Shown: positions 17,849 to 34,569, numbered from the stretch's first letter. The stretch: 64,000 bases of DNA from an uncultured archaeon (GCA_964347045.1 CAYFXC010000001.1:121243-185242), one strand, 5' to 3'. Notes: a model not told the origin generated them from the sequence alone. Numbers and translations are program-made.

Positions 17849-17937
17849 AGCTATCTGCCAGAACCTTTTAGTAAGCGATTTCAAAAATGTCTTATTAAAC
17901 CATCTGTAATCTGGCAGTGAGAGGTGTAGGCACAAAA

Positions 17938-18309
17938 ATGTCTGATAATATTCAAGCATGGGTCAACTACATGCAACAAGTCGATAATACAATAATGGCT
18001 GTTTCTGTTGTTAGAAGTGATGGAACTGTGCTTTTCACGACACCAAACTGGACGGTCCCGGGGGCTGAAATCCTTTCAGCCATTCAGAGCAAACCTCCTA
18101 GTATAACGATTCAAGGGGTGAAGTATAGCACTATCCAAGCCACTGATCATCACCTAGTAGCCACTAATGTTCGTGGTCAAGGATCAATTGTTATCACTGC
18201 CGCGCGTGACAAGGGCTATGTTATAGCTTATGTTTCTCCTCAAGGCGATGTACAAGGCGCTTACATCGAAATTGCAAAAGCATCAGCCAATATCGGAGGA
18301 TTCATGTGA
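17938..18309 (+). CDS. Profilin-like protein (eukaryotic signature protein)
   Basis: 'WVNYMQQVDNTIMAVSVVRSDGTVLFTT...', '...VKYSTIQATD...', 'GQGSIVITAARDKGYVIAYV', 'GAYIEIAKASANIGGF'. These follow the profilin N-helix / DG.VWA / KY..I / C-helix pattern. The ORF track start at 17917 is probably over-extended. Confidence 0.7.
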   Translation: MSDNIQAWVNYMQQVDNTIMAVSVVRSDGTVLFTTPNWTVPGAEILSAIQSKPPSITIQGVKYSTIQATDHHLVATNVRGQGSIVITAARDKGYVIAYVSPQGDVQGAYIEIAKASANIGGFM

Positions 18310-24764: not shown

Positions 24765-26099
24765 CTATTTTTTCCAACATTTTTTTCTTATGTTATAGTA
24801 GATTTTCCATTTGGGATAGGAAAGACCATATTCATCAAAAATTGTTTCAGCGATTTCTCCGCATGATTTCCCCTTGTTCAAAAGGTTCAATATTATCGTA
24901 GAAACACCATCAGGTATTGGTTGTCTTATATTCGTAGCTCTTAACTTAATCATCTCACCAACCTTTTCTGCCTTAACCTGGCGTCCGGAGGCATGCAAGA
25001 AAAAAGGCAAAGTTATGGCCTTAAGGAGGCTTTCTGCATTAACAATAACTACTTCGATTTCGTTTCCGCGCGATATTATTCCGAATTTTTTCAATAGCTT
25101 CATAACAAGATGTTTATTTGGTCCGCAGGCATTGCCTAGAACTTGTGATTGGGTACTCGCATAACCATCACCATCATTAATACTCTGTAGAAACATTAAA
25201 CGGACTTCATAGGGAGCATCGATTAGCCAGTCAGCTCTAATAGGGTCGTAAGTAGTCAGTTTCTTTGGTCCCATGCTAAGGCAGCTTCGCATTATCCAAG
25301 TAATCAATGGAGAGACCCCAGAAACACACAAATATTCTAATTCAGATTCAGAATAGCTGAAAGAGATTCCAAGTTGAGAAAGATAGAAGCAAGTAGCTTC
25401 GATTACCTGTTTACTCCATTTATACGATTTCGAAAGGCGGAGAGTTATTCCTGTTGATGCATGGCTATTATTCGGTTTACTTGCGTCACTTACCATCATT
25501 CCTAAAACATAAGCAAAGGCTTGTTCTTTACTTGTGACGCCAAATTGTTCACAAAAATAGTGTCTTTCTTCTGTGATTATTGGTGTCAGCAGATCAAGAA
25601 CTTTACAAATTTGGTTCCAATTAGTAATTTTTACAGGAACCTGTATGAAATTAGTAGGTTCAAAACCGTGTCCAGCTTTCAATGTTCTTGGTAACCATTT
25701 ATGTCCAGGTTCAACTTCTTCAGTGGGTATTTGCCGGGCAAGGTTGACTAAATCAGGCCTTATCTTGTTTAGTAACCATTTTCTCACAAACCCACGATCT
25801 TTCCCGATTTCTTTAGCAATATCTGCAATATTTCCTCCCTCTTTGAATAGTTCAATTGCATGAAAGTATTTTTCAACTTGAGTGAGACGATGTTGATAAC
25901 CGAATAGCCCAGTTAACTCCTGGAAATGATAATAGGATTTTAGACGACCCATAAGGTCATTAATAGAGCAAATACCATTATTTTCCCGATTTATCTCAGT
26001 AATTTTAGCAAGAGCTTCGGTCTTAGAAAAGGCATTTTCAAGGAGTTGGTATAAGCGAGGTCGACGAGCCTTCTTTATATAAGCCGTTATAAGAACCAA
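24765..26099 (-). CDS. Double-LAGLIDADG-like (homing-endonuclease-like) protein with N-terminal HTH
   Basis: Two LAGLIDADG-like blocks about 105 aa apart: 'FAYVLGMMVSDASK' and 'LMFLQSINDGDGYAS'. HTH 'NIADIAKEIGKDRGFVRKWL'. The annotated 'M' is a TTG, and the reading frame stays open a further ~94 codons upstream with no start codon. Confidence 0.5.
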   Translation of the reverse strand: MVLITAYIKKARRPRLYQLLENAFSKTEALAKITEINRENNGICSINDLMGRLKSYYHFQELTGLFGYQHRLTQVEKYFHAIELFKEGGNIADIAKEIGKDRGFVRKWLLNKIRPDLVNLARQIPTEEVEPGHKWLPRTLKAGHGFEPTNFIQVPVKITNWNQICKVLDLLTPIITEERHYFCEQFGVTSKEQAFAYVLGMMVSDASKPNNSHASTGITLRLSKSYKWSKQVIEATCFYLSQLGISFSYSESELEYLCVSGVSPLITWIMRSCLSMGPKKLTTYDPIRADWLIDAPYEVRLMFLQSINDGDGYASTQSQVLGNACGPNKHLVMKLLKKFGIISRGNEIEVVIVNAESLLKAITLPFFLHASGRQVKAEKVGEMIKLRATNIRQPIPDGVSTIILNLLNKGKSCGEIAETIFDEYGLSYPKWKIYYNIRKKCWKK

Positions 26100-26381
26100 T
26101 TGAGCCTCAAGAGACCTAGTTCTACAGGTTTTCCGGGCAAGATTAGTTAAGTACCCAAATCTCAGATGTTTTTTATTTCTTAGCTTTTTTACGAGGTCGA
26201 AATGCAGCTCAGCATTTTCAAGTAACCTATGAAACCGTCGATTACGTTTGATACCGGGGTATTCACTGTCAATAATAAGGTGAAGGTGTTCTTTTTCCTT
26301 AATACCAAATTCACCAATACGAGGATGCCAGATCTTAACATTAGCTGAAATTCTGTTTGTCCCTTCTTTGAAGTACTATCA
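26100..26381 (-). pseudogene. Start-less in-frame remnant with an HuH (IS200/IS605 TnpA-like) motif
   Basis: About 94 stop-free codons with no ATG/GTG/TTG, contiguous with the LAGLIDADG-like ORF. Contains 'EKEHLHLIIDSEYP' (cf. TnpA 'DHIHMLLEIPP') and 'HLRFGYLTNLARK' (cf. 'FWCRGYYVDTVGK'). Confidence 0.3.
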
Positions 26382-26426
26382 GTTATTCATTTTTAAACTA
26401 AAGAACTCCACGACCCAGGATTATTA

Positions 26427-26939
26427 TTAGAATTTGTATTCAACTTCTATTTCGTGGAGAGAAATCTCTGGTGGGAGCCAGCTTCTAAGATGCTGTTCGA
26501 GCATTTCCGCGAGGAGTACTCCCGGTTCAGCCAATGATTGGTGCCGAATTTCCATCTTGATGTGGAGTGTGCCATACAGAAGGTGGAGGTGGAAACTTAA
26601 GTCCGCAAACAGTATACTGCTACTAGGGTCGCCCCATATTGGGTCAGCTTCCGGGAATTCGCGGTTCGGTCGGTTACACCCAAACGTAGTGATTGCACTG
26701 CGACCCATGGCGTTTTCAGAGGCAGAAACTCTATACGGTTCATTTAGATCGTAGATGATTGGCACAAGCTTCTGTTCGCTAGCCCACAAGCGCATGATGT
26801 CGGCGACTTCTTGATAGATTCGTTCGAAGTGTGGGGGGAGCTTATCGAACTGCTTGACTTTCACCATGCCATTTCCACTCATCACATAGATGGTGGTTCT
26901 CTTTGAAAAATCTGACCATAACGAATTTAATAGACTCAA
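26427..26939 (-). CDS. Hypothetical protein (GC-richer than its surroundings), ends in a TAATAATAA triple stop
   Basis: 170-aa ORF, no motif recognised with confidence (one 'FHLHLLY' HuH-like string). Composition by eye is about 50% GC, against about 40% nearby. Confidence 0.35.
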   Translation of the reverse strand: MSLLNSLWSDFSKRTTIYVMSGNGMVKVKQFDKLPPHFERIYQEVADIMRLWASEQKLVPIIYDLNEPYRVSASENAMGRSAITTFGCNRPNREFPEADPIWGDPSSSILFADLSFHLHLLYGTLHIKMEIRHQSLAEPGVLLAEMLEQHLRSWLPPEISLHEIEVEYKF

Positions 26940-27230: not shown

Positions 27231-27530
27231 ATGCCTTCGGGTATCAAACGACTCGTTCTCGATGTTCTCAAACCACACATGCCGAACCTTGTTGAAATAG
27301 CAACATTGGTCGGAAAAATAGATGGCGTCGTTGGTGTTAACGTCGCCCTTGTCGAAGTCGACTCTGCTACGGAGTCAATAAAAGTAACTGTTGAAGGCGA
27401 TAACCTCGAATTTGAAGAGGTTAGATGTGCCCTCGAAGCCTGTGGCGCTTCCGTTCACTCAATTGATCAAGTAGTTGCCGGACGTACAGTTGTGGAAGAG
27501 GTAAAAACCCATATGGAAAACCGCGGTTAG
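27231..27530 (+). CDS. Conserved archaeal small protein (DUF211/COG1888-like)
   Basis: 'IKRLVLDVLKPHMPNLVEIATLV...GVNVALVEVDSATESIKVTVEGDNLEFEEV...GASVHSIDQVVAGR' pattern; 99 aa. Confidence 0.5.
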   Translation: MPSGIKRLVLDVLKPHMPNLVEIATLVGKIDGVVGVNVALVEVDSATESIKVTVEGDNLEFEEVRCALEACGASVHSIDQVVAGRTVVEEVKTHMENRG

Positions 27531-28237
27531 ATTCCTAACACCCACTTAGAATTCTCAATCAATGCTTCTACATGAGGTGCTAAAAGCTCGTAAAGCGAAT
27601 TATAAAACACTCTTGGAAGAATCTGTAGAACATTAAAAATCCGATTCAATAGACCACTCATAACCGGTTCTAAAAGTTCAGGACGGCTACTAATTTGCGA
27701 GGTTAAAACTGCGTCAATAGCAGCTTCTTCGGCTAATCCATCAATTAGGCGATAGATTGGTCCTGATCTTTCAAGAAAATATGGAAGACCCCGTTCGTCA
27801 TAAAGGACAATAATATTTAGTTTTTCGACAACACGTTTTGCATACCAGTCTATGCTCGAATCCTTAGCTGAAAACGATTCATGAAAAAGAGGTTCGGCTG
27901 GTCGTCGTTTTGTGATCTTTGATGATTCGGCTGAAAAGTAACTCCGAGGAACAAGATTGGGGTATGTGTTGGGATGTCGGAATGCTATGTAAGTGACTGC
28001 AGCAAAGAGTGCTTCCGGTTCGCGACCAATTTCTTGAGTTCCAAGATGGCTCGCTAGAATGCGAAGCGATGGAAGAATTAAATCCTGACGAACCTTCTTT
28101 GAAGTAAACAAACGGTATGCTTGTTTTAGGTATACTGATGGTGTCTTCAGATCAGTTCGTACGGTTCCTTCTACTCTGATCTTTGACGCCAAATCCATTT
28201 GTCTCCGCAGGAAATTACTACCCCATGTATGAGACAT
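27527..28237 (-). CDS. Hypothetical protein with a TFIIB/cyclin-like repeat
   Basis: 'DLILPSLRILASHLGTQEIGREPEALFAAVTYIAFRH' resembles a TFIIB-core/cyclin-box repeat (...ASKLGL...RSP.SIAAAAIYIA.R). No Zn-ribbon is present. The likely start is the internal 'MDLASKI'. Confidence 0.3.
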   Translation of the reverse strand: MSHTWGSNFLRRQMDLASKIRVEGTVRTDLKTPSVYLKQAYRLFTSKKVRQDLILPSLRILASHLGTQEIGREPEALFAAVTYIAFRHPNTYPNLVPRSYFSAESSKITKRRPAEPLFHESFSAKDSSIDWYAKRVVEKLNIIVLYDERGLPYFLERSGPIYRLIDGLAEEAAIDAVLTSQISSRPELLEPVMSGLLNRIFNVLQILPRVFYNSLYELLAPHVEALIENSKWVLGI

Positions 28238-28293
28238 AGGTCCTAAATATATTTTAGGCGAGGCTCATGTTCAAGCTTGATGTTCACCTTTCT

Positions 28294-28671
28294 CTACGTA
28301 ATGTGGCCTGCTTCTTCAAGGTATTGCTTTTCTTCTGGTGTAAGGTGTGTTTGTACAAATTCTATACCTTTTTCCGTCATTGAAACTTGTGCCATCGTAT
28401 TAGTCTTTGAAAATATGGTTACAAATCCTCTTTCTTTTAATCTTTGAAGCACAGCAAAGACAATTTGGTTCAATTCCTTATCAGTGACATTTGGTTTTCC
28501 GTTAGGGCGTTGAAATTCCGGAATGTGTTTTAGAACATGACGTAGAGATGCCAGCGTACGTCGCCTTGTTTCATGGGGGTTGGAATAGAGCCAGAGAATG
28601 AGTACATAATCTATTACTTCGCCTGAATGCTGGCGATGCAATTGACGGGCAAGATAGTAAACGGCGGGCAA
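28294..28671 (-). CDS. Small winged-helix protein (hypothetical)
   Basis: 'IVFAVLQRLKERGFVTIF' wing-helix-like; 125 aa. Confidence 0.35.
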   Translation of the reverse strand: MPAVYYLARQLHRQHSGEVIDYVLILWLYSNPHETRRRTLASLRHVLKHIPEFQRPNGKPNVTDKELNQIVFAVLQRLKERGFVTIFSKTNTMAQVSMTEKGIEFVQTHLTPEEKQYLEEAGHIT

Positions 28672-28725
28672 TATCTTCGCTTTATGTTAGTTGAATAATT
28701 GTTTAAAAGTTACCAAACGTCCTGT

Positions 28726-29466
28726 TTAATCCCCTGTCCATTGGTAGGTTCCTTTTGAAGTCTTGATGATATAGCCTTGGCTTCTTAGCAGATTCAATGC
28801 TTCTTCTATTCCCGCACTGGGTCCCACTATGTCTTCAAGTCGTTTGATCAGTTCTTTGTGGCTAAGGGAAATTTGTGCATCACGTAGAATAGTTCCAATT
28901 ATGCGTGCTAGTTTTGTAGGGCTGGCTTTTCTAAGTTGTTTATCGATTGATGTATTTTCATCCATTACTAACCTGACTTGCCAAGGTTTAGGTAAAATGA
29001 GATGACCAGTTCGAATGAGGGTTTCAATTTGCTGTGTAGCCCAATCCCAAGGGATTCCAGCTTTAAGGCACTCTTGTTCTAAAACCTGTAAATCAAGAGG
29101 GCTTGTTTGGGCATGTTCATGTAGAATCCGCTCTAATTCTTGGTGTCGGGTCGAAGCTGTTTTTATTCTTTGCTTCGAATCCTGCAGGTGTTCTAAATTT
29201 ATTTTTTTATCTGGAATTAGATTGTGGATTTTATCTCGTGATTTCTCCATTGCTTCTATGAATTCCTTATGATGTTTTCCTGTTTGATAGAGTTTTACTC
29301 GGGTTCTCGCGGTATTTGCATCCTCTACAAACACTGCACTTAATGGGTTAATTTTGAAAATTCGTTGGCAATATACACATAATCGCGTCTTTTGGCGAGT
29401 GGGAGCATATGTGTAACGTCCACATCTTGGGCATCGAATTATGTAAAATCCTTCCCGTGACATCAA
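28726..29466 (-). CDS. Zn-ribbon + tandem winged-helix protein (hypothetical)
   Basis: N-terminal 'CPRCGRYTYAPTRQKTRLCVYCQRIF' C4 ribbon. Two C-terminal winged-helix-like units ('LDLQVLEQECLKAGIPWDWATQQIETLIRTGHLIL' and 'ISLSHKELIKRLEDIVGPSAGIEEALNLLRSQGYIIKTSKGTYQW'). Confidence 0.4.
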   Translation of the reverse strand: MMSREGFYIIRCPRCGRYTYAPTRQKTRLCVYCQRIFKINPLSAVFVEDANTARTRVKLYQTGKHHKEFIEAMEKSRDKIHNLIPDKKINLEHLQDSKQRIKTASTRHQELERILHEHAQTSPLDLQVLEQECLKAGIPWDWATQQIETLIRTGHLILPKPWQVRLVMDENTSIDKQLRKASPTKLARIIGTILRDAQISLSHKELIKRLEDIVGPSAGIEEALNLLRSQGYIIKTSKGTYQWTGD

Positions 29467-29506
29467 GACAACCAGCGCCGTAAGCCTAATTAGCCTTTCG
29501 TGTTAA

Positions 29507-29845
29507 ATGTCCTCAATTGGGAACACTCATATGAGTTTTGGATTAGATCAGTATTTTAAAAAGAAAAAGCCTACCAAGAAAAATGAGACTGAACCTAAAG
29601 AAGAAGAGGTCATAGAAATATTAGAAACTGGTTCGTCAGAAACTCGAAATTGGCCTTTAATTTTAGAAGAGACTGTTAAATCCATGGTACTCTATCCCCA
29701 TCTACTTGATTATACACGAACCAATATATTTCCCAAACGTCCCCAAATAACTGCTGAAGAGCTTGCAATTCAACTTCGAGTTCCTTTGGGGGTTGCAATT
29801 GTTCTTCTTGACAAGCTTCATAGTGAGATTCAGGAAACGAAATAA
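29507..29845 (+). CDS. Small hypothetical protein with C-terminal winged-helix-like segment
   Basis: 'ITAEELAIQLRVPLGVAIVLLDKL'; Lys/Glu-rich N-terminus; 112 aa. Confidence 0.3.
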   Translation: MSSIGNTHMSFGLDQYFKKKKPTKKNETEPKEEEVIEILETGSSETRNWPLILEETVKSMVLYPHLLDYTRTNIFPKRPQITAEELAIQLRVPLGVAIVLLDKLHSEIQETK

Positions 29846-34176: not shown

Positions 34177-34569
34177 GTGGACCAATGGCGAGTAACTCTT
34201 CAAGCAAAAGAACATGTTCTACATGATGTACTCAATAAAACAGGAGCTTTAATGATCCGTCCAAGATATATCAATGAGTTACGAGCAATATCACAAATTC
34301 ATAGGGTGCCATTTCAGGTAAAGTCGCCCGAAGGAATAAACAAACTTCCTTCGAGCTATTTTGTTGTTGAACTAATAAGCCCTGATAATCAGATGCCACC
34401 AGTTACTGGTCTTTTTGAATATTCGTATGGAGCGATTCGGCTTGTAGCATTAGATAATGAAGGGCTTACAAAGAGAAGTGGTGATGAGATGGTTGCCTTT
34501 TTCGAAGCGCCTCTTCAACAAAAAACTGGAATTACCATTCGGATATATGAAGCTAAAAATAACTTCTAA
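34177..34569 (+). CDS. Hypothetical protein
   Basis: 130 aa, no recognisable motif. Confidence 0.3.
   Translation: MDQWRVTLQAKEHVLHDVLNKTGALMIRPRYINELRAISQIHRVPFQVKSPEGINKLPSSYFVVELISPDNQMPPVTGLFEYSYGAIRLVALDNEGLTKRSGDEMVAFFEAPLQQKTGITIRIYEAKNNF

Follow-up and report, generated by a model that had tools for sequence, protein, structure and literature searches.

Four consecutive genes at positions 27527-29845 of a 64,000-nucleotide stretch of DNA from an uncultured archaeon (GCA_964347045.1 CAYFXC010000001.1:121243-185242; hereafter the window) represent, in this genome, a conserved gene module that has so far been found only in Asgard archaea. The core of the module is the invariably adjacent gene pair g246-g125, which is usually accompanied by g236, g112, a DUF211 gene and, in many lineages, a gene for a coiled-coil protein. 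The four genes of the window are named after the lengths, in amino acids (aa), of their open reading frames (ORFs) as first called. The linkage of these genes is our main new result. The module appears to be under purifying selection and to be undescribed, the folds of its components being known ones. We suggest tentatively that its products act as a DNA-associated, transcription-factor-like complex.

Conserved gene neighborhood of the module

Related loci (labelled by L-numbers such as L003 and L007; collected proteins carry P-numbers) were gathered through look-ups of encoding contigs and one scan each of the GTDB genomes and the JGI metagenomes. Besides the window, 35 distinct g246 loci were obtained, of which 23 have at least 2.5 kb on both sides. 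The g125 gene lies directly downstream of g246 in all of the 31 loci with room for it. Among the 23 well-flanked loci, DUF211 was found in 19, g236 in 18, g112 in 17, and the coiled-coil gene in 11. This last gene defines a fifth module family, whose proteins of 170-190 aa combine a coiled coil at the N-terminus with a conserved C-terminal domain (L006:7400-7939, L005:4969-5511, L007:7477-7986, L024:5336-5878, and L028:6215-6790). The family has no Pfam match and only generic coiled coils as PDB matches, and no copy of its gene is present anywhere in the window.

At least five gene orders keep the module genes linked across several Asgard lineages, while the surrounding genes change completely. 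In the Hermod-type order, g112 is divergent from g246-g125-g236, DUF211 is convergent, and a TrmB regulator adjoins the module. A deeper Hermod-like lineage (L006, L038, and L039) has the coiled-coil gene between g125 and g236, and in L005 (Ranarchaeia) g236 and the coiled-coil gene are divergent from g246-g125. L007 and L046 carry a g112-like gene divergent from DUF211-ferredoxin-coiled coil-g236-g246-g125, with module gaps of 15-18 nucleotides (nt) in L007 and overlapping genes in L046; in L007 and L008, the L22-S3-L29 ribosomal protein operon follows directly downstream of the set. L028 shows g125-g246-ferredoxin divergent from coiled coil-g236-g112-like. Finally, in loci of the Baldr type, DUF211 and the coiled-coil gene adjoin g246-g125, without g236. 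DUF211 adjoins the module in the Hermod-type, Baldr-type and L007/L046-type loci. Such a linkage, kept through many rearrangements in changing surroundings, argues for functional coupling of the module genes.

DUF211 (arCOG04140; PDB 2X3D and 3BPD) is a pan-archaeal protein of unknown function that belongs to the conserved archaeal "dark matter" (PMC9425974, PMC6393860). Its window copy (27231..27530, plus strand) is a clear member of the family (Pfam PF02680, E = 7.5e-33); the gene is convergent with g236, and the two share 4 nt. A link of DUF211 to this Asgard module is absent from both papers. DUF211 is here tied to a specific partner set for the first time. Our literature search found no description of the four genes and no mention of DUF1922, the zinc ribbon family recognized in g246 (see below).

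Two other neighbors were observed at some of these loci. A small ferredoxin of 71-85 aa with two [4Fe-4S] motifs (L007:7210-7425, L028:5750-6007, and L046:1622-1837) sits between DUF211 and the coiled-coil gene in the L007/L046 lineage and just upstream of g246 in L028. In the Baldr type, a 221-223 aa protein lies beside DUF211 (L024:4125-4796, minus strand, and equivalents in L025-L027) and is 90-92% identical among the four loci. Its IVIETKVDVD motif is reminiscent of PD-(D/E)XK nucleases. We considered this protein as a divergent g236; the hidden Markov model gave no match even at E = 10 and the sequence looks unrelated.

The four genes of the window

The window belongs to an Asgard archaeon of the Hermodarchaeota group. 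Close relatives of its genes carry the labels Hermodarchaeota, Thorarchaeota or "Promethearchaeota", which are all names of Asgard groups. A profilin homolog at 17917-18309 on the plus strand (Pfam E = 2e-5; 25.1 bits against a cut-off of 25 bits), near genes for DNA ligase and GAPDH, fits this origin. Profilin is a recognized Asgard eukaryotic-signature protein.

Three of the four genes are co-directional on the minus strand in the order g246 (28726-29466), g125 (28294-28671; 125 aa), and g236 (27527-28237; 236 aa), with gaps of 54 and 56 nt. Only g112 (29507-29845, plus strand) is divergent, so that the alternating orientation given in the initial annotation does not describe the locus. Based on family alignments and the source annotation, the true starts of two genes likely differ from the mechanical calls. 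For g246, called from a TTG at 29466, the start is likely the ATG at 29463 (28726..29463; 245 aa), and for g112, called at 112 aa, likely the ATG at 29531 (29531..29845; 104 aa). For g236, it is possibly the ATG at 28198 (223 aa). Indeed, an identical 245-aa g246 protein is annotated in GCA_012974985.1 (contig JABAOH010046144.1), and g112 is annotated as 104 aa. The 67 nt between the divergent g246 and g112 (29464..29530) may serve as a bidirectional promoter.

The four consecutive ORFs, noted at the outset as lacking a confident annotation, have no Pfam or NCBIfam match above threshold. They have dozens of homologs at 50-87% identity and distant ones at 25-32%. Between the window and L003, identities were 75% for g236, 66% for g125, 58% for g246, and 68% for g112, compared with 76% for DNA ligase, 77% for GAPDH, and 58% for the CCA-adding enzyme. 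All four ORFs are therefore real, conserved genes that diverge at the rates of neighboring housekeeping genes.

The idea that the four families are paralogs with a common winged helix was rejected, since profile-profile comparison was blank (hhalign probability of 1% or less). The winged-helix segments that the initial annotation ascribed to all four were found, among the modeled proteins, in g246 only, g236 having a cyclin-type fold. We also rejected an anti-phage defense role or viral origin: PADLOC and PHROGs searches gave no meaningful defense or phage family matches, and a fold search against BFVD gave only weak TFIIB-like matches (giant viruses and a rudivirus).

g236, a protein with a TFIIB-type cyclin repeat

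Residues of g236 are counted here from the ATG at 28198. In its AlphaFold2 model (mean predicted local distance difference test (pLDDT) score 86; predicted template modeling score 0.80), the N-terminus is disordered and residues 18-126 (27821..28147, minus strand) are predicted to form a five-helix TFIIB-type cyclin repeat including the terminal helix-turn-helix (HTH). Residues 130-220 (27539..27811, minus strand) follow as a beta-hairpin (strands 130-133 and 139-142) and three long helices (147-170, 176-190, and 196-220), all with pLDDT above 90. This part may be a second lobe that has diverged, or else a second repeat that has degenerated.

Foldseek matches of g236 in PDB were almost only TFB, TFIIB, Brf1, Brf2, and cyclins, those to natural proteins being all of these kinds, as they were in the sequence searches. 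The best match was 1d3u_B (E = 3.5e-3). Foldseek aligns g236 over its full length to the two-repeat TFB core, with template modeling scores (TM-scores) of just 0.33-0.36, and the viral structure library BFVD gives the same TFIIB-like picture. A family profile extended with distant relatives matched the human TFIIB core at E = 0.003-0.008, Pyrococcus woesei TFB at E = 0.02, and cyclin B1 at E = 0.1. The alignment to TFIIB spans the first repeat in full, including its AAALYIA.R helix. The Pfam TFIIB repeat (PF00382) was matched far below cut-off (best E = 0.034) in 12 of 30 family members and in 4 of 27 in the extended set, and nowhere in the family were two repeats found at the Pfam cut-off. 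The family also has an invariant RHP..(Y/F)PN motif of its own. Unlike TFB and TFIIB, g236 has one recognizable repeat and lacks the N-terminal zinc ribbon, B-reader and B-linker; it has no Cys cluster, and TF_Zn_Ribbon was matched in no family member. The early description of a TFIIB/cyclin-like repeat protein without a zinc ribbon thus stands for one repeat and for the missing Cys cluster, whereas the second half of the protein is divergent.

A profile search of 1.8 billion representative proteins, run for the g236 family only, returned 28 matches at E≤0.001, one of which (P0185) is a repetitive false positive. Every match with an organism name was from Asgard archaea (Helarchaeales, "Asgard group", or Promethearchaeota), and the search gave no eukaryotic homolog. 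The g236 family is therefore small and, as far as its members are named, restricted to Asgard archaea; it appears to be TFB-like in fold but is not a TFB. The proposal that the four genes encode eukaryote-like factors holds at the level of fold only. Two irregular members were noted. Protein P0174, encoded on a JGI contig of 1138 nt, is extended at its N-terminus by about 130 aa that include hydrophobic, membrane-like segments; the extension may stem from a genuine fusion or from a wrongly called start. At L021:7244-8059, the g236 ortholog of one metagenome-assembled genome is broken into two ORFs of 129 and 97 aa, by either a frameshift, pseudogenization or an assembly error.

Solo g236 homologs occur in other Asgard lineages, paired in operon-like fashion with genes for further small proteins that putatively bind DNA. 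In L029 (6772-7014) and L052 (2263-2469), a gene of 68-80 aa overlaps or abuts the solo g236 on its upstream side, and its product looks like a ribbon-helix-helix protein with a coiled-coil tail; in L050, the product of the gene divergent from the solo g236 looks like a winged helix. An archaemetzincin gene (Peptidase_M54) adjoins the solo g236 in both L029 and L052.

g246, a zinc ribbon protein with two winged helices

The domain composition proposed for the 246-aa protein, a C4 zinc ribbon followed by two winged helices, was confirmed by four invariant Cys residues and by an AlphaFold2 model (mean pLDDT 79), with the addition of a helical hairpin. The predicted parts, all on the minus strand, are a DUF1922-type zinc ribbon formed by beta strands (residues 6-46; 29326..29448), a conserved basic helical hairpin (49-80; 29224..29319), a first winged helix (WH1; 103-165; 28969..29157), and a second winged helix (WH2; 182-242; 28738..28920). 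A disordered linker precedes WH1, and another linker precedes WH2. The hairpin helices at 49-60 and 65-80 have a pLDDT of about 85-89 and carry a conserved VKLYQTGKHH...AVEKSR motif in the family alignment; the isoelectric point (pI) of the ribbon and hairpin segment is 9.9. WH1 consists in the model of helices 103-118, 125-134, and 139-151 and a strand at 162-165, and is near-neutral (pI 6.0), with invariant Trp residues; WH2 is basic. Residues C11, C14, C29, C32, W139, W141, P160, and W161 are invariant in the family alignment (38 homologs).

The zinc ribbon is of the DUF1922 (PF09082) type. This Pfam model is matched by all of the 38 family members, scoring 26.2 bits in the window protein against a cut-off of 30 bits and 30.0-37.6 bits in orthologs and distant relatives. 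The g246 profile matches the structure of MTH1184 (PDB 1gh9) at E = 0.011, and the zinc-ligand layout of DUF1922 (CxxC...CxxC in a beta ribbon followed by a helix, here residues 6-46 and 49-60) is present. However, MTH1184 is a stand-alone chain of 71 residues in 1gh9, whereas in g246 the domain forms the N-terminal part of a 245-aa protein and is followed by two winged helices. Two winged helices with a flexible linker are also found in the C-termini of SelB and Stn1, the cullin WH-A/B region, the Nse1/Nse3/ScpB kite proteins, TFIIE-beta/Rpc34, and ESCRT-II, none of which begins with a DUF1922 zinc ribbon. Whole-model fold matches of g246 were weak and generic (SelB, Stn1, cullins, UFL1, Nse1, ScpB, and Rpc34); several of the tandem scaffolds are thus matched (E = 0.01-0.2), none specifically, and ESCRT-II is not among them.

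Two of these resemblances had been raised in the initial annotation. For TFIIE and Rpc34, the likeness holds only at the level of the generic winged-helix fold, at E of about 0.05 or more. TFIIE-alpha, TFIIE-beta, and Rpc34 gave no Pfam match in g246 or its relatives, and the fold matches on this side were mouse Rpc34 2dk8 (a single winged helix, E = 0.13) and one chain of the pre-initiation complex 7nvr (E = 0.046). As for ESCRT-II, its subunits Vps22, Vps25, and Vps36 are built from tandem winged helices, and EAP30 (PF04157) was matched below threshold in one of 38 relatives (E = 3e-4), so that the module might be thought to form an ESCRT-II-like membrane-remodeling complex. Yet the window g246 has no EAP30 or Vps25 match, Vps25 is matched in none of the 38 relatives, and no ESCRT-II chain occurs among the 50 best Foldseek PDB matches. 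The combination of a zinc ribbon and a TFIIB-type partner is also unlike ESCRT-II. Finally, Vps4, ESCRT-III and ubiquitin-system genes, whose presence in related genomes had been suggested as a check, occur in no gene-called neighborhood of any lineage, and Vps28 is likewise missing there. Since the Pfam, fold and neighborhood tests were all negative, this highly improbable reading was rejected.

WH2 is most similar to the C-terminal winged helices of archaeal Rpa2/RPA32 and of MCM, although the likeness may reflect only a common winged-helix subtype. The best match of g246 is the Rpa2 winged helix, both in sequence (family profile against the Pyrococcus abyssi Rpa2 domain, E = 2e-4) and in structure (Foldseek E = 4.5e-3; root-mean-square deviation of 2.1 Å and target TM-score of 0.80 to 9f2a_C). 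Pfam matches of the same type recur below threshold (WHD_MCM8 in 33 of 38 members, MCM4_WHD, MCM_C, MCM_WH_arc, and RPA_C, and also the winged helices of Hop2 and Mnd1). RPA_C, MCM_C, and MCM_WH_arc never reach their cut-offs, the best being RPA_C with 20.3 against 22.6 bits in the L007 homolog. Unlike Rpa2 and MCM, g246 has neither an OB (oligonucleotide/oligosaccharide-binding) fold nor an AAA+ domain.

Because WH2 is of the Rpa2/MCM type, the main rival to a transcription-type role is that the module is a replisome or DNA-repair adaptor, in which WH2 would dock primase, polymerase or helicase, as the Rpa2 winged helix of P. abyssi does, and g236 would be Orc6-like. Orc6 is, to our knowledge, the other protein to employ the TFIIB fold outside transcription. 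Fold matches of g246 to the tandem winged helices of Stn1 agree with such a role, as does the position of the module about 7 kb from PriS and GINS51 in L007. On the other hand, every replication-type Pfam match is below cut-off, g236 matches TFB and TFIIB and not Orc6, and no replication gene recurs beside the module across lineages. Among the 50 best fold matches of either model, no Orc6, Cdt1 or ORC chain was seen, the exception being the Mcm4 chain of the MCM-loading entry 5v8f (g246, E = 0.055). We consider an adaptor of this kind rather unlikely.

g125 and g112

The g125 family comprises 66 clusters and has an invariant LWLY.NP motif in a pattern of recognition helix followed by wing. Its protein is probably a single winged helix with a C-terminal helix. 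Matches to known winged helices were all below threshold: DUF6293_C in 6 of 27 members, HTH_27 in one of 27 (E = 0.027), a MarR chain in PDB at E = 0.56, and, as the best PDB match, the eS10 winged helix at E = 0.28. These matches are too weak for g125 to be assigned to the MarR, PadR or HTH_27 families, and the four genes are not simply generic regulators of the MarR/PadR kind, the outcome that, if seen for all four, would have spoken against eukaryote-like factors.

A milder version of this view is that the module proteins are independent small regulators or DNA-binding proteins (MarR/PadR/ArsR-like winged helices), which are syntenic without forming a complex and each control near or distant genes. 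It draws on the weak matches of g125, the Fur, Zur, and SarZ winged helices among the fold matches of g246, the TrmB regulator beside Hermod-type loci, the occurrence of g236 as a solo gene in several lineages, and the reported tie of DUF211 to ArsR regulators in Thermococcales (PMC9425974). However, uncoupled proteins would hardly account for g246 and g125 being neighbors in 31 of 31 loci, together with four to six genes that stay linked despite at least five rearrangements in different Asgard classes. Overlapping genes or a spacing of 15 nt suggest co-translation. No ligand-binding or sensor domain was found in the module proteins, and the multi-domain scaffold of g246 is unlike one-domain repressors. 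Independent regulators are thus unlikely in our opinion; were the module an ordinary set of regulators after all, it would still name and delimit four or five protein families that lack a matching Pfam or NCBIfam model.

The ortholog alignment of g112 shows a Lys/Glu-rich N-terminal tail followed by a C-terminal part that looks like a three-helix HTH. In L028, a g112 homolog (E = 3e-13) follows downstream of the g236 homolog; L007 and L046 also have one close to the module. The sole PDB match of the g112 profile was ribosomal protein eS25 (E = 0.13), which has a similar Lys-rich tail. With the eS10 match of g125, the SelB tandem winged helices among the fold matches of g246 (E = 0.015), and the L22-S3-L29 operon next to the module in L007 and L008, this could point to a ribosome- or RNA-associated set, made of an eS25-like g112, an eS10-like g125 and a g246 that binds RNA through its tandem winged helices as in SelB. 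None of these E-values is significant, and adjacency to ribosomal genes is confined to one lineage. As judged from the alignment, g112 ends before the wing and lacks the wing strands of eS25; hhalign gave a probability below 1%, and Ribosomal_S25 was matched in neither g112 nor the 11 homologs scanned at E≤1. S10_plectin was absent from the window g125 and found in one of 27 family members (E = 0.071). The identities of g112 as S25e and of g125 as eS10 were therefore rejected, and a ribosome- or RNA-associated set is quite improbable.

Possible function of the module

The functional steps proposed here are ones that we infer from the domain anatomy, phyletic restriction and gene linkage described above. 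No enzymatic domain was recognized in the module proteins, g125, g112 and the coiled-coil protein being judged from sequence alone. Because of this, and because g236, g125 and g246 are basic (pI 9.0-9.6), a DNA-associated complex is the most economical reading. The tight and sometimes overlapping spacing of the genes suggests that the module proteins are synthesized jointly and form a single hetero-oligomeric complex acting on DNA. In such a complex, g246 would be the scaffold: its basic zinc ribbon and hairpin and its basic WH2 may bind nucleic acid or dock on a polymerase, and the near-neutral, Trp-rich WH1 may bind a partner subunit. Zinc ribbons of TFB and TFIIS and winged helices of the Rpa2 type act in contacts of this kind. 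g236 would provide a TFB-core-like surface for contacts with DNA or protein, and the coiled-coil subunit may dimerize the assembly.

The role of this putative complex would most likely be in accessory or alternative transcription initiation or regulation, at RNA polymerase and the promoter. A transcription-type role is favored for three reasons. The TFIIB-type repeat is the sole fold of the module with a narrow functional range; solo g236 genes are paired with other small DNA-binding proteins; and eukaryotic pre-initiation complexes repeatedly combine a TFIIB-like cyclin domain with winged-helix subunits. Several findings weigh against this role. No significant family assignment ties any subunit to transcription, and the g236 profile reached no TFB at E≤0.001 among the 1.8 billion representatives. 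The TFIIB likeness of g236 is weak and concerns one repeat only (sequence E = 0.003, Foldseek E of at least 3.5e-3, low TM-scores), and the protein lacks the elements on which TFB function rests. The best-classed winged helix of g246 resembles replication proteins (Rpa2 and MCM), not TFE, TFIIE or Rpc34. As g236 is missing beside the module in Baldr-type loci and solo in other lineages, it may not be an obligate subunit. In addition, the structure models cover g246 and g236 only, and we infer complex formation from gene linkage only. A DNA-associated, transcription-factor-like complex is thus a possible reading, and the one that we tentatively prefer.

A bolder form of this proposal is that the module is an Asgard-specific alternative basal factor, that is, a "split" TFB-like initiation factor. 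The zinc ribbon and the two following helices of g246 would then replace the ribbon, B-reader and B-linker of TFB, the cyclin repeat of g236 would replace the TFB core, and the tandem winged helices would provide contacts like those of TFE and Rpc34. The replication version of the same idea would be a licensing pair of an Orc6-like and a Cdt1-like protein. We regard a split factor as improbable; if it were true, the module would be a polymerase-associated sub-complex prefiguring the specialized TFIIB-plus-winged-helix pairings of the Pol I and Pol III systems of eukaryotes.

Among known organisms, Asgard archaea stand nearest to the archaeal host from which eukaryotes arose. It is an open question how the multi-factor transcription and replication systems of eukaryotes developed from the single apparatus of archaea. 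For this question, the module offers a concrete set of four to six proteins, in which a TFIIB-type repeat protein is linked to a zinc-ribbon/tandem-winged-helix scaffold.

Other features of the window

Two ORFs at 24765-26939, between the DUF211 gene and a Fae-Hps gene, were found in this genome only; the two flanking genes are directly adjacent in L003 and L006. One ORF encodes 444 aa with weak LAGLIDADG_3 and HTH_23 matches, and partial relatives of it are present in L014, L017, and L036; the other encodes 170 aa without a match. The region looks like an insertion of about 2.9 kb, which is possibly mobile. Further along the window, a conserved 130-aa ORF without a Pfam match (34177-34569, plus strand) lies between indolepyruvate oxidoreductase genes and the gene for the CCA-adding enzyme, and its product shows 60% identity to the counterpart in L003 and 53% to that in L006.

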